A stretch of DNA of 64,000 bases from assembly GCF_006345805.1 (NCBI RefSeq), contig NC_043014.1:21328001-21392000 (forward strand), given 5' to 3'. Of the stretch, positions 20,270 through 60,012 are shown in pieces (position 1 is the stretch's first letter; the number at the start of each line of letters is the position of its first letter). The notes beneath the pieces were generated by a model. It was not told where the DNA came from, searched no databases, and saw nothing but the letters and a program-made list of their open reading frames with translations. Made by a program: the position numbers and the translations under genes. The DNA comes from Octopus sinensis. Lineage: Eukaryota.

Positions 20270-23200
20270 TTTCCCGTCTTGGGGAATTATGACCGTGTTT
20301 CGTGGTCTGCTACCACAACAGCTCCTTTATAGGATCCAGTTAGCTCAAGACATCATCAGGAGGAACCACGTCCGGTTTCGGCCCCTACTCCTCTACCGTT
20401 TTGACGTGACGACCCCCTTCCTTTCGGAGGTGTCTTCAGCACTGGTGTTGGGTGCATGTCTTCTTTCTTCTGCTCTCTGGCCTCTTCGATGTAGCGTCAA
20501 CGAGTGTCAGCGGGCGACTGATTGACTTGTCAAATTTTTCCCTTTAAGTACCTGCCGCTAGGCCCCAGCAAGTTGTTACGTTTAACTGACCGATGAAGGC
20601 ACATAGTCTTAGGCCACGCATTCTCTAAACGACCGTCACCTGTCAGTCAGCGAAGCTAATTCAGTGTCAGCTTGTTATTTCCCACCTGCATATTATGACT
20701 TTCAAGCCATTTTTGGTTTTCCCGCTTCAGCCATATATAGAAGTTGGCTTTTTCGACCGCCTCCTGTAATGAGGAGAGCCTTATTGGTTTTCGCAGCTCG
20801 GAGCCAGAAAAAAAAATCTTCTTTTGAATAGCGTTGTCATTTTTCTTTCAATGAAGCCTCTAGCCCCCACTGCCAGGTAGTAATACTTGACATTCCATCC
20901 CTGTACTCTTCGATTAGCTTTTCATACCTCTTCTCCTTTCGTTCCTCTGCATTGCCGATGTTCTCTTCCCATGGCACTGTCAGTTCTAGCAAAATTCCTA
21001 TTCTCCGTTCTCTGTTCCATAGGACTAAATCTGATCTTTTTGTCGTTTTTATTAGTGGAAATATTACTTGTCTTTCCAAATCCGTGGCCACCTCCTAGGA
21101 TCCCTTCCATCTTTCGTCTATCTCATATATTTTACTTGTAGGCCTGGCTTTATATCCTTTTCCCTCCTTCTGGAAGTATACTTTCCTGCGCTTTTCCACT
21201 TTTGGGTACTCTCCCCTATTGTACCTCTCGATCTTCTCCTTGAGTGCTGCGCTTATGACGCCGAGGACTTGGTTATGACGCCATGTATATCTTTTTAGTG
21301 CTAGTCTGCAGTTTGAAAGAACATGTCTAACCGTCGCTTTCTCTCCGCATCTACACTCATCGGTTGTTTTTATGTTCCACCGGACTAAGTTCGCCGGTGA
21401 GGGTAGAACGTCAAAGGTAGACTTGATCAAGAAGGATGTTCTTGCTTGTTCCCAAGCCCAAAGTTCCTTCTATGATATTCTGCAGCTGATCACATATTCC
21501 TCCGATCTCAGACACTGTCCCTGTTGACTGCATTGCACCAAATGTACATTTCGCCTTTCTTCTTTCTCCTTTCTCACTTCGTATACCACTGCCTCTTTCA
21601 TCTCTTTTATACTGCTCTTGCAAAATGGCCTGAAATTGTGCGACCCTAGGCCGGCTCTTGCTTCTTGCGTCGCTCCGACTATATCCGCGTGCCTTAGTTT
21701 TCCGATTGCCCTGTTTACTGCCTCTTCTGCCTCCCATTTCCTCCCTGTTCGTACTTTGGAGGGTTTTCCCGGATGCTCTGATCTTTTGAATACCATAGCA
21801 TCATTTCTGTCCTTGCCTATCCGGCCTTATATTCTTCAGCAATGGATGTTATTGGTAGTTGCAGCACGGGTTTTCCATATAGTGCAGTTGTATTCAGTAG
21901 TTTCAGCAGACCAAGCCATTTTCTGATAAACACACTGCATCTTTGTTCCATCCTTTCTACTCTACTCGAGGCTATTTCGTACATTTGCAATGGCCACATT
22001 ATCCTTGGGTACAGCCCAAACTGCAGTATCCAATATCTGAATTTTCCCGGCAGCGTTGTTCTGTCAATTGCCTTTAATCCTTGTTCTACTAACTCGTGTG
22101 TTTCTTTCCCTTGTTTCTTATCATTTAATGAATCTCTATACCATCTGTCGAGACTCTTTACTGGTTTTTCTTTCACCGTTAGTATGTCTTCACCTCCTAT
22201 CCTGAATTTCACTTCTTCTTGCATTCCTTTCTCGAAAGCCACGCTTCGAGATGTTTTGGCTTTGAATTTCATCCTTGCCTATCCTATCATCTCGTCCAAC
22301 CGCTCTAACGTTCCCTCTGCTGCTTCTCTACTTTCCGATAATACAGTAACGTCGTCCATAAAAACCCTTAATGGTGTCTTTATAACAGCTTTCCTACAGT
22401 TTGTAGATCTAAGTAACATTTCCATGACTAGCACGAATAAGATGACTGATATCGTGCATCCGGCTGCAATACCTACTTCAAGCTGTTGCCACTCCGTTGT
22501 GAACTTTCCTGCTGTAAATCTCATCCTCAGGTTGTCGTAATAGAACATGAGCATTCGTTGAACATCTTTTGGAATCCAAAAGAAGTCCATCGCTGTTTTT
22601 ATTAGTGCGTGCGGAACAGATCCATAAGCATTGGCAAGATCTAGTCAAACAATATACAGGTTTTTCTTCAGTTGTCTTGCACAGGTGATGGCAAATGCGT
22701 GTTCTATGCACCCAGGGATTCCGGGGATTCCTGCTTTTTGGATTGCTTCATTAACGTACCCGTTATGCTGTACGAATCTTATGATTCGTCTAGCAATAAT
22801 TCCAAACATGATTTTCCCGTCAGTATTTAATAATGAAATTAGTCTAAATTGTCCTAGTGTTTTTGCATCTTTTTCTTTAGGTAGATAGATACCTTCGGCT
22901 ATACACCATCGCTCCGCTACATCTTTCTTCTTCCACATTTCTCTTATCAGTGCAAACAGCTGCAAACGTAATTTTGGGCAATATTTGTATACCTTGTAGT
23001 TCACTCCATCGTTCCCTGGTGCACTTTTTGCTCTTGCTTTCCTTACGAACTCATCCATTTCTTTCCATTTGATGTCACTCATATCAAATGGTACTCTTGG
23101 TTCAGGTGGCTTCTTCAGTCCGTGCATTTCTGGGAGTACTTTATTTCTGTCAGAGTCGCTGTATGTCTCTTTCAGATGTTGTTCGAGCTCTTCTTTCGTG

Positions 23201-23620
23201 CAATCCAATTTTCCGCTTTTATTTTCAGTAAATAAATGTTTCGCATATTGATAGGGATTGTTCACAAAGCTACAATAGTTTTTCTCTCTCTCCTTTCTTC
23301 TGCTCTTCCTTCTTTGTTTTCTTAGCAGATCTCGATGCCTCTTTTTTATCTCTTCATATAGCTGCTTTAGCCCTTCTCTTTCCTCCACCTTTGCATCCTT
23401 CCATCTGGTTCTGAGTTTTTTCTTCTCTTCTCGAATCTTTACGATCGTCTTTCTCTCCTCGATGGTCCGCTCTTTGCCGTTGATTCTACCTTCCCCGTTG
23501 TTTCCAGTCCAAATCTTTTCGCTCCTTCCTGGCAGATTGTATTAGCCAAGTTTTCGAGCTTTTGTTCGTCGTCGCCTTTGAATTTGATGGTCATTCTTGC
23601 TACCTCGTTGTCAAATTTTT
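20270..23620 (-). mobile_element. HERO-type (R2 group) non-LTR retrotransposon, decayed ORF plus 3' UTR
   Basis: SAPGNDGVNYKVYKYCP, QFRLISLLNTDGKI, QKAGIPGIPGCIEH, LDLANAYGSVPH, GIAAGCTISVILF, FMDDVT, LPGKFRYWILQFGLYPRIMWPL, GRKWEAEEAV, FDVLPSPANLVRW, C..C..HVLSNC, RYTWRHNQVL, RSDLVLW..LELTVPWEE. Confidence 0.9.
20346..20410 (-). ncRNA. Candidate non-circularly permuted hammerhead ribozyme in the HERO 3' UTR
   Basis: Minus strand GTCACGTC AAAA CGGTA GAGGA GTAGGGGCC GAAACCG GACGTGGT TCCTC CTGATGA TGTCTTG. Helix III CGG/CCG, helix I GAGGA/TCCTC, GUA triplet, intact CUGAUGA and GAAA. Confidence 0.65.
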
Positions 23621-59346: not shown

Positions 59347-59511
59347 TACAGGGTAAATGTTTTTTAATTTTCTCCTGGTTTACGGAATTGATGTTATTTG
59401 CGGTTGAAGCTTTGGCTGTTATTTCTAGTGGTGAATGGCCTATTATGGCCGTTCCTTGATTGTTGATATATATATATATATATATATATATATATATATA
59501 TAATATATATA

Positions 59512-60012
59512 TTACCCTCCTCCCACTATCACATGACTCGTGACGACCTAAGGCGGTGTCATTCTTTTTCGTATTGCCTTCAACCGCACTGGAGACGGTT
59601 TTCTGAACTCCTCGCTCTACCCCTCCCGTGTTTATAGTCCTTTAGGACAGTTTTCATTTCTCCTTCACGTTACCCATTTTTGTCTTGTCTTGCAGCCCCG
59701 AGGCTCTTTGTTGTATAGTATCATCATTACTGTCTTCGTGTGGCCCTAAGCCTTTAATGTGTTTATTGTTTTGCTCTTCGTCTGTCCACTAAGGGTCTCG
59801 TCTCGAGCCCGTCTCGTTTTGTTATGTTTTGGCCTCCTTCCCGGCAAGCTTCTTGTCGGTGCCTCCAGAGTGGAAGCAATATTATCGATAACGGCTGAAA
59901 TTGCGTTTGACCCTCTGGCCGATAACTGATGAAGAATTGGTGACCTTCTGTGTTTTCTGTTCGCCTGTGTATTTAGTATACGTTCGTCTGTTTGTTTACT
60001 GCACATTTTTTA
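59512..60012 (+). mobile_element. PLE-terminal-repeat-like non-coding element (second, decayed copy at 57615-57780 minus)
   Basis: Pyrimidine-rich tail between (TA)n tracts; 59810-59980 is similar to the reverse complement of 57615-57780. Confidence 0.5.
59865..59934 (+). ncRNA. Candidate non-circularly permuted hammerhead ribozyme
   Basis: GCAA TA TTATCG ataacggCT GAAA TTGC gtttgaccctctggc CGATAA CTGATGA AG. Helix III GCAA/TTGC, helix I TTATCG/CGATAA, helix II CT/AG, AUA triplet. Confidence 0.65.

Follow-up and report, generated by a model that had tools for sequence, protein, structure and literature searches.

A candidate split-core hammerhead module in a HERO-like retrotransposon and a tandem repeat of Octopus sinensis

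Minimal type I hammerheads are carried by Penelope-like elements and by animal retrozymes (Cervera and de la Pena, 2014; PMC4209133), and the same hammerhead group is treated in a preprint (Li et al., 2026; 10.64898/2026.07.22.740005). The non-circularly permuted hammerheads of type SGC (Eckert, Friedrich, Weinberg and Weinberg, 2023; PMC10085705) were found in metatranscriptomes, with none coming from the genome of a known organism. In one of these ribozymes, SGC-3, disruption of the stem I-II 'I' helix abolished cleavage and repair restored it (PMC10085705). The authors assume that the block formed by CUGANGA and stem II cannot be split, and their descriptors require a G directly, or one U, after CUGAUGA as well as a stem II downstream (PMC10085705); owing to these two demands, the descriptors would miss the octopus motifs described below. 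Non-LTR retrotransposons carry ribozymes of other classes, including HDV-like ribozymes in R2, RTE, and Baggins elements (reviewed in PMC6765202) and twister variants in Schistosoma elements (PMC8501958).

Each of the two octopus motifs contains a conserved module of six covarying helices and a hairpin, and the pattern of conservation makes it fairly probable that the module is a hammerhead able to cut itself as a single molecule, with its core split between A9 and G10.1. None of the papers searched describes this split-core layout.

The two motifs and their elements

The DNA analyzed, here called the window, comprises 64,000 nt of Octopus sinensis (GCF_006345805.1, NC_043014.1, 21,328,001-21,392,000, forward strand), and feature positions are counted within it. 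Motif 1 lies in the 3' UTR (20285..20850, minus strand) of element 1, an RLE-type, HERO-like non-LTR retrotransposon whose decayed open reading frame (20850..23760, minus strand, ends approximate) was recognized through an RVT_1 match (22282-22644, E 4e-12) and through intact relatives of about 1100 aa. The clade name is the label used in the earlier note and is provisional. HERO is an established clade name (PMC7650587). One relative (P0002), with 71% identity to a segment of the window, has a single open reading frame with an RVT_1 domain, and by eye its C-terminus shows the CCHC knuckle (CxC..H..SxC) and the PD..E nuclease motif (RPDL..ELTVPWEE) that mark the RLE type. In a comparison with solved structures an R2 protein was the top match, with L1 ORF2p close behind. 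Named relatives come from coral, amphioxus, and carp, and searches of viral and prokaryotic collections returned none. The motif is present behind the open reading frame in 28 of 36 divergent relatives, spread over deep branches of a quick protein tree used for depth only. Other copies of element 1 end about 105 nt past the predicted cut, without poly(A).

Read 5' to 3' on the minus strand, motif 1 begins with the 5' strand of helix IV, AAGACA (20431..20436, pairing with 20352-20347), and with hairpin V (20415..20430), which has a GAAA loop and is imperfect in the window copy. The 5' strand of stem II, GGUC (20411..20414), follows upstream of the cut site; its first base is G10.1, it forms 4 bp with 20383-20380, and it is the most variable stretch across the aligned copies. 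The 5' strand of the extension (20403..20410) then leads through an AAAA bulge (20402-20399) into the cut-site block (20389..20398), composed of the stem III 5' strand CGG, UA, and the stem I 3' strand GAGGA, with the predicted cut between 20394 and 20393. The G block (20373..20385) holds the stem II 3' strand GGGGCC, GAAA (20379-20376), and the stem III 3' strand CCG. Behind it lie the 3' strand of the extension (20365..20372, pairing with 20410-20403) and, at 20347..20364, the stem I 5' strand UCCUC, CUGAUGA (20359-20353), and the helix IV 3' strand UGUCUU.

Motif 2 lies on the plus strand in a piece of a non-coding repeat (59512..60017) that is flanked by TA microsatellites and whose unit measures 705 nt in a tandem copy. 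This repeat family (family 2) occurs in partial tandems, and no long frame was seen in the copy inspected for one (L049). Its insertions are Penelope-like, 10 of 29 having an inverted segment where the repeat joins its 5' flank, and a piece of Penelope reverse transcriptase adjoins 1 of 60 loci; its units carry the split motif in S-G-C order, not the type I hammerhead of retrozymes. Motif 2 opens at 59831..59859 with the helix IV 5' strand (mutated in the window copy, and assigned by eye from column counts over 30 copies) and hairpin V (59841-59859). An irregular stem II 5' strand of 3-4 bp, the weakest helix assignment of all, and the extension 5' strand occupy 59859..59870, followed at 59871..59887 by the k-turn GA (59873-59874), the stem III 5' strand GCAA, UA, and the stem I 3' strand UUAUCG, with the predicted cut between 59881 and 59882. 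The stretch 59893..59918 contains the stem II 3' strand, GAAA (59897-59900), the stem III 3' strand UUGC, the k-turn bulge UUU with its GA (59909-59910), and the extension 3' strand, and 59920..59945 contains the stem I 5' strand CGAUAA, CUGAUGA (59926-59932), and the helix IV 3' strand. Both k-turn GA steps are retained in 24 of 28 copies. A third, more decayed copy of motif 2 lies at about 57650..57760 on the minus strand, inverted relative to that at 59.9 kb.

The earlier note had drawn the extension in both motifs, pairing GUCACGUC with GACGUGGU across AAAA on the minus strand and CCAGAG (59865-59870) with CUCUGG (59913-59918) on the plus strand, and both pairings are correct. The extension also reaches close to the CUGAUGA strand, as that note had it: in motif 1 it directly adjoins the stem I 5' strand (0 nt), in motif 2 a single nucleotide lies between them, and the distance from this strand to CUGAUGA itself is 5-7 nt. 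The note's view of both motifs as permuted, hammerhead-like retroelement RNAs is supported. Not recognized in it were the stem II strand upstream of the cut site, helices IV and V, the k-turn, and the third copy.

Covariation of the helices and the hinge

A descriptor that specifies the order of cut site, GAAA, and CUGANGA and requires stems I and III, with the extension left outside, matched twice in the window and in none of 100 dinucleotide shuffles, which bears out the claim that the shared design exceeds chance. Among relatives with at least 550 nt behind the protein match it was found in 25 of 53 in sense and in 0 in antisense, with 0 in each of 50 shuffles of the relatives, and none of 121 viral stretches with the GGCCGAAA..CUGANGA pattern passed. 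The core letters CUGANGA, GAAA, and UH are common to both window motifs and the 25 relatives, partly by construction of the descriptor. The statistics of stems I and III, paired in 12-13 of 13 clusters per position with 2-4 pair types, are fitted, since the descriptor requires both stems. H17 was never G in the 11 loci (of 11, by eye) that lie outside descriptor selection.

The extension is conserved between copies, as the earlier note had supposed, reaching 5 bp or more in 25 of the 29 family 1 copies picked from the genome by pattern, and it covaries (own-partner score 18.2 vs. 12.0 for cross-pairs, p=5e-5, 12 clusters). An upstream stem II of at least 4 bp counted from N11.1 is found in 11 of 13 clusters (p=5e-5) and in just 13 of 29 copies of the Octopus genome; N10.1 is G in all 25 upstream arms, and II.1 is always G-C. 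Placing stem II downstream of CUGANGA (4 of 12, p=0.33), or an Eckert-type 'I' partner for the extension there (p=0.38), was tried and rejected on these values. Pairing downstream of CUGANGA did not exceed that of cross-pairs (p=0.33 and 0.09), and the tail forms helix IV instead (p=1e-4, with p=0.49 and 0.14 in two control windows), which has 5 bp or more in 24 of the 29 family 1 copies. A9 is thus not joined to stem II, directly or through 1-2 extra nt, as it is in recognized hammerheads. Hairpin V scores 13.5 vs. a shuffle maximum of 11.6, a signal that disappears on shifting. Nearly every helix position shows 2-5 standard pair types, and N7 is free (U 18, A 5, G 3, C 3). The 5' strand of stem II is 0-2 nt from the extension in 22 of 25 cases, and the extension 0-2 nt from the stem I 5' strand in 23 of 25. 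Departures include C for U16.1 (L075/L117), altered core letters (L099, L124, L126), and one cluster (L076/L094/L107/L120) lacking the upstream G10.1 and clear helices IV and V, with a G directly after CUGANGA. Helices II, IV, and V and the k-turn were spotted by eye on the data later used for testing, and the clusters are interrelated, a kinship that the permutations handle just in part.

Between stem III and the extension there is a hinge of 3-13 unpaired nt in 29 of 29 loci. A standard kink-turn has a 3-nt bulge followed by G.A and A.G between two helices (PMC5061560 and PMC4382518). This consensus, with flanking helices, is present strictly in 11 of 29 loci and in 18 of 29 under a looser definition that admits A at 1b or a bulge of 4 nt, the other hinges being mostly a bulge; among 14 long-hinge loci it is strict in 8, against a shuffle mean of 0.58 and a maximum of 4. 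The 3b.3n pair is Watson-Crick in motif 2 and in L071, L075, and L100. Motif 2 has the consensus and motif 1 does not: with a 4-nt bulge, no k-turn, and just 16 nt from A15.1 to C3, the fold-back of motif 1 is not obvious. The long hairpin of the earlier note is not straight in any locus, as the hinge is always there, and many of the hinges fit the k-turn consensus. What sequence comparison establishes is the set of helices, the G10.1 that never varies on the upstream strand, the consensus of the k-turn, and the location in the 3' UTR.

That note had also called the two element families unrelated, which holds for the elements but may not for their RNA modules: these share six helices and the k-turn and may be homologous, so that motifs 1 and 2 would not be two independent inventions. 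A sequence-only profile built from 21 relatives gave E 0.0015 for motif 1, at best 9e-4 for family 2 copies, and E>=1.2 for viral controls, which is weak evidence on this homology.

Predicted cutting and competing readings

From 5' to 3' the module would run through the helix IV 5' strand, hairpin V, the 5' strands of stem II and the extension, the hinge, the stem III 5' strand, UH with the cut, and the stem I 3' strand, and would continue with the stem II 3' strand, GAAA, the stem III 3' strand, the hinge, the extension 3' strand, the stem I 5' strand, CUGANGA, and the helix IV 3' strand. The fold, with several pseudoknots in one molecule, would be that of type SGC with its ends closed by the hinge and re-opened after A9. 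Helices IV and V would stack and keep A9 next to G10.1 at a four-way-like junction, and the extension, bent back at the k-turn or bulge, would tie together stems I and II at their far ends. In the LINE, cutting would sever the open reading frame from the 3' priming end and so might act as a self-limiting step, which RNAs could escape through capture by the element's protein or through re-ligation of pieces still clamped by the helices. In the 705-nt repeat, tandem multimers would be cut to unit length, as in retrozymes. This role in the two carriers, the weaker part of the proposal, is a tentative suggestion that we regard with more doubt than confidence.

The ends of copies bear on these ideas. 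By junction pattern, 1 of 715 exact-match copies of family 1 starts at the cut site (0 at a control site), and an alignment of 56 copies is free of indels at this position, indicating that the templates were either uncut or re-ligated. Contigs from four sequencing runs, which by their nature cannot reveal such ends, show no starts or ends. The cut site was rejected as a 5' or 3' end of the family 1 element, as copies neither start nor end there, and by eye motif 1 does not fit an HDV-like or canonical type I ribozyme. In family 2, junctions fall within 4 nt of the cut in 2 of 29 cases, one being a fold-back whose palindrome begins at the cut (L293/L294), and 37-65 nt upstream of it in 8 of 29, and one deletion (L308) ends at the cut site; these are too few to serve as evidence.

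Without an excess of copy ends at the cut site there is room for a structure that does not cut. The fold could be real and, whether hammerhead-derived or hammerhead-like, serve in vivo as a 3' UTR structure bound by the element's protein to start reverse transcription. The position of the motif just behind the open reading frame and near the 3' end, the copies that read through the cut site unscarred, and the relatives with a mutated core all suit this, as does the binding of pseudoknotted RNA by R2 proteins (PMC12222951). We consider it unlikely, since every helix changes in sequence around an unchanging CUGANGA, GAAA, UH, and G10.1-C11.1, N7 is free, and H17 is never G, which is a pattern of catalytic constraint, and since the module also occurs in family 2, which inserts in Penelope-like fashion.

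Self-cutting could also take place, in keeping with the dimer of the earlier note, between two RNAs that swap parts: helices IV and V, the 5' strands of stems II and I, and CUGANGA, together the base module of one RNA, would dock on the loop of its partner. Secondary structure is blind to the difference between intra- and intermolecular pairing, linker geometry is puzzling even in the published SGC ribozymes, for which the main text of PMC10085705 contains no concentration test, and bulge-type hinges are short; Penelope hammerheads, too, are thought to act as dimers. Such an exchange is nevertheless quite improbable here: a straight dimer has no need of the hinge found in every locus, the dispersed LINE copies read have a single motif each, and stem III is a true helix with no palindrome, palindromes in the loop not being conserved. 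Nor did a search for palindromes that could serve symmetric dimers yield a conserved one.

Very improbable is a switch in which the extension is inhibitory and has to open before cleavage. Nested folding does yield long hairpins without stems I and II, and for the 14 nt just ahead of the extension the potential to pair with the 5' strand of stem I exceeds that of cross-pairs (p=0.004, in one of four tests), so that an off-fold pairing with that strand may exist; it would use the stem II 5' and hairpin V 3' strands rather than the extension and is compatible with folding as one molecule. The stem II 5' strand is contiguous with the extension, so melting the latter would unhook stem II. The extension occupies the place of the SGC 'I' helix, which SGC-3 needs, and similarly short linkers are noted in SGC ribozymes that do cleave, so the earlier view, in which the extension stands in the way of folding and calls for either melting or a second RNA, is probably wrong. 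Chance matches within decayed repeats, which would suit the lack of any Rfam hammerhead match (at gathering score in the window, or at E<=10 in 10 relatives) and the modest folding of the window copies against shuffles (z -1.96 and -0.74), are barely credible, being already refuted by descriptor controls that are all zero and by covariation over 13 clusters.

Place among described ribozymes

A broader proposal, to which we give a little less than even credence, is that the one-molecule, split-core module represents a seventh natural hammerhead topology beyond the six-permutation scheme, its core assembled from four strands with A9 and G10.1 meeting at a four-way junction and stems I and II tied by way of a k-turn. 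On this view HERO-like retrotransposons would carry it as an ancient, mobile 3' module that Penelope-mobilized repeats also captured, and a host k-turn-binding protein would switch it where 3b.3n is Watson-Crick. If this is true, the stated rule of contiguity between CUGANGA and stem II is broken and the search space for ribozymes is larger, Rfam and the published descriptors both missing these motifs. Non-circular permutations would also move from anonymous metatranscriptome contigs into animal genomes with hundreds of copies per genome, the k-turn would be a natural answer to the linker problem left by the type-SGC ribozymes, and a 3' ribozyme would be added to the R2-related group of retrotransposons at a time when R2 UTRs are being engineered for gene insertion.

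Like the elements with HDV-like ribozymes and twisters, element 1 is a non-LTR retrotransposon with a motif predicted to cleave itself, and the ribozyme class differs. The R2 ribozyme lies at the 5' end and frees its element from the co-transcript, whereas motif 1 lies in a 3' UTR and copies neither start nor end at its cut. The hammerheads of Penelope-like elements and retrozymes resemble the octopus motifs in that a retroelement carries the core, and in family 2, as in these elements, units stand in tandem, 5' segments are inverted, and the sites are microsatellites (PMC8557442). In those hammerheads the order is C-G-S, and helix III, being absent or palindromic, makes dimers necessary; stem III of the octopus motifs is complete, and their core is permuted and split. 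Unlike standard kink-turns, the putative one of the octopus motifs would serve as a hinge inside a hammerhead. The closest likeness in layout is to type SGC, with which the motifs share the S-G-C block order, a short link from stem I to stem II, and a linker before stem I that forms a helix with the strand continuing the stem II 5' strand. In SGC-1 and SGC-2 (oligonucleotide table), as in the octopus motifs, the stem II 5' strand runs into the 'I' helix, and A15.1 and C3 are 17 and 19 nt apart there (counted from the oligonucleotides), compared with 16-26 nt in the motif loci. The stem II 5' strand and the 'I' partner lie 3' of CUGANGA in type SGC and upstream of the cut site in the octopus, where helices IV and V and often a k-turn are added.

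Recurrence and helical architecture of the permuted motif

The window holds two permuted hammerhead-like motifs, motif 1 on the − strand (about 20347-20436) and motif 2 on the + strand (about 59831-59945), in both of which the linker before stem I pairs with an upstream strand (the extension) exactly as an earlier note had claimed. The motifs are real and conserved, and they are more unusual than that note supposed, in another way. No Rfam match was found in the window at gathering score. A descriptor of the permuted order (stem III-UH-stem I, then GAAA-stem III, then stem I-CUGANGA, with UH the letters before the cut) matched twice in the window, and 100 shuffles, a control that the note had proposed, yielded no match. 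Seventy metagenome loci encoding relatives were sampled; in the 53 with at least 550 nt behind the match, the descriptor returned 25 sense matches, with 0 antisense and 0 in 50 shuffles, and none of 121 viral stretches picked for GGCCGAAA..CUGANGA passed it. Where the ORF end and at least 250 nt more are present (36 loci), the motif is complete in 21 loci, variant or decayed in 7 and, by our lists, absent from 8, two of these 8 keeping partial remains by eye. The relatives are deeply diverged in a quick tree. Helices are kept and core heptamers altered in the loci L124 (about 2230-2280), L126 (about 845-890) and L099 (about 2620-2690), with changes common to L124 and L126.

For the pairing tests, loci were grouped at 70% identity into 12-13 clusters, and the score of a strand with its own partner was compared with its scores against partners from other clusters; L089 was omitted where its contig ends, and motif 1 is not a separate count in the tests of stem II, helix IV, hairpin V, pair types and the I5' (5' stem I strand) off-fold. 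The linker pairs with the upstream strand (18.2 own vs. 12.0 cross, p = 5e-5), and the same comparison lends no support to a downstream partner (p = 0.38). The arm before GAAA gives no pairing signal with the strand after CUGANGA (p = 0.09 free, 0.33 anchored). Further helices, spotted by eye first and then tested on the same data, as were the hinge and k-turn described below, are an upstream stem II, in which that arm pairs over at least 4 bp from N11.1 with the strand that immediately precedes the extension (11/13 clusters, p = 5e-5; GUUGA/UCAAC, GAUGA/UCAUC, GGUGGC/GCCACC, GUGUCC/GGACAC); helix IV, formed by the tail after A9 and a strand further upstream (p = 1e-4; control windows 0.49 and 0.14); and hairpin V, between the helix IV upstream strand and G10.1 (13.5 vs. 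a shuffle maximum of 11.6, and 7.8-9.6 when shifted). The upstream stem II strand begins with G in 25/25 loci and shows 3-4 pair types at positions 2-5, while helices IV and V are contiguous, with no gap, in most co-folds. I5' has a second potential partner in the strand preceding the extension (p = 0.004), a pairing that may represent an off-fold. The helical architecture as a whole is held with high confidence.

Four loci (L076, L094, L107, L120) are without the upstream G10.1 and have a G directly after CUGANGA, the remaining stem II lying upstream; this lineage may be an intermediate in which the break is shifted by a single base. A second CUGAAGA (20433-20439, − strand) overlaps the helix IV 5' strand of motif 1, with no matching stem I strand. 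The hairpin V loop contains UGAUCA in several relatives. Resemblance of hairpin V to stem I (L061 and motif 1) and repetition of the stem I 5' strand plus C3 in the helix IV 3' strand (L095, L109 and L104, there UUCCUC) are possible traces of internal duplication.

Hinge and proposed one-molecule folding

An unpaired hinge of 3-13 nt separates stem III from the extension in 29/29 loci. The k-turn consensus is matched by 11 of these hinges on strict and 18 on relaxed terms; among the 14 long-hinge loci there are 8 strict k-turns, against a shuffle mean of 0.58. The k-turn of motif 2 is retained in 24/28 copies. Neither motif 1 nor its kin has a k-turn; their hinge is a one-sided bulge, A-rich in most cases. 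The bend that a k-turn puts into a duplex leaves an included angle of 50 degrees (PMC5061560, in part), the sort of turn required for folding within one molecule. A strand-swapped dimer of two motif RNAs would form the same base pairs, and is judged rather unlikely. One-molecule folding with activity is modestly favored. Reach within one molecule is uncertain for the short bulge type, motif 1 included. Metal ions alone do not fold k-turns whose 3b.3n pair is Watson-Crick (PMC4382518, in part); those of motif 2, L071, L075 and L100 are of this type, which hints at possible control by protein.

Carrier elements and the predicted cut

The source genome (2.72 Gb) is rich in microsatellites. The ORF upstream of motif 1 is decayed and matches RT, and the motif lies in the 3' UTR of this element, whose intact relatives (about 1100 aa) combine RT, a CCHC knuckle and a PD..E nuclease motif and thus mark it as an RLE-type non-LTR element. 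It is provisionally assigned to HERO, the name that the earlier note gave it. Copies of this family (family 1) end about 105 nt past the predicted cut, without poly(A), and a family 22-mer matches exactly at 715 places. The HERO-like copy continues directly, from 20290 to about 17000 (−), into pieces of a different RLE-type element broken by an unrelated block (about 19300-17950); a further RLE fragment lies at 13847-14689.

Motif 2 lies in a non-coding repeat with a 705-nt unit (family 2; 961 first-look candidates), and a third motif copy, also of this family, occurs at about 57650-57760. An inverted segment adjoins the 5' junction in 10/29 copies, a pattern known for Penelope-like insertions (PMC8557442, in part). 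The family 2 copies L035 and L056 are flanked by ordinary minimal hammerheads of Penelope type. RT fragments at 4444-5771 (−) and 6270-6360 (+) were identified by eye as Penelope-like; upstream of them the opposite strand holds CGAAA and CUGAUGA with a distance of about 60 nt, which fail the descriptor. At L293/L294 (G000:C3:36008698-36008733) family 2 copies stand head-to-head, folded back at a 10-nt palindrome that starts exactly at the predicted cut site, an arrangement repeated on C6461. A third repeat (57890-59465), between two family 2 copies, consists of about 485-nt units, 96-98% identical, in direct tandem and then an inverted segment, each unit with CUGAUGA and none matching SGC. A Mariner-like transposase fragment (by eye; 60130-61175, +) directly follows the TA repeat ending motif 2's element.

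The cut as a boundary of family 1 copies is ruled out by the single junction-type match there among 715 (control site 0), and the site has no indels in 56 copies (three 5'-truncated copies dropped, one duplicate merged). Insertions therefore derive from uncut or re-ligated RNA. Re-ligation could proceed with the four helices clamping the cut pieces together; ligation is far faster in extended than in minimal hammerheads (PMC6155905, in part). Catalytic activity is judged probable, and our best guess for family 1 is a self-limiting cut in competition with capture by the element's protein. The main rival is a purely structural role for the motif, with no cutting. In family 2 a cut would turn tandem RNA into unit-length RNA, for which the junctions give weak hints only.

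The V3'/II5' stretch is hypervariable in this genome (0.22 vs. 0.01-0.09 per column, central segments being biased low by selection) and stem II of at least 4 bp is kept in only 13/29 copies, so that many copies may lack activity, perhaps the window's own among them. This G/C-rich stretch, from hairpin V into II5' (20411-20422, −), differs in almost every copy among L001-L030 and L132-L161; the variation could stem from slippage during reverse transcription at the junction, from unstable G runs or from errors in the assembly.

Relation to type SGC hammerheads

The layout was not found in the open-access literature searched on HERO and non-LTR hammerheads, RLE clades with ribozymes, type SGC since 2023, A9/G10.1 insertion, four-way junctions, non-circular permutation and additional helices, a scope that took in a minority of the Eckert alignments. 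It is likewise absent from the portions covered of Perreault 2011 (PMC3088659), PMC13725137 (Lopez-Galiano-type, 2026), Forgia 2023 (PMC10162972), the reviews PMC6765202 and PMC6155905, the zeta-virus preprint, PMC5737381, Cervera 2014 and the 2026 retrozyme preprint; within its covered portion PMC13725137 cites Weinberg 2015 among works on 'variants containing additional helices'.

The block order cut site, GAAA, CUGANGA is that of type SGC (Eckert et al., 2023; PMC10085705). In that type, the sequence following CUGANGA contributes first to stem II and then to the 'I' helix, where its partner is the linker leading into stem I (PMC10085705), whereas in the present motifs the partners of both helices lie upstream. 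If the two ends of a type-SGC ribozyme were joined by way of the hinge and the chain were opened after A9, the motif's strand order would result; helices IV and V would fill the opening and, stacked, could put A9 beside G10.1 in a four-way-junction-like manner. The extension would then correspond to the 'I' helix and be required for the fold, instead of blocking it as the earlier note had envisaged. In SGC-3, breaking any of the four helices stopped cleavage and repair restored it, and in type SGC as few as 0 nt can connect stem III with the 'I' helix, yet the points so joined are far apart in the crystal structure (PMC10085705).
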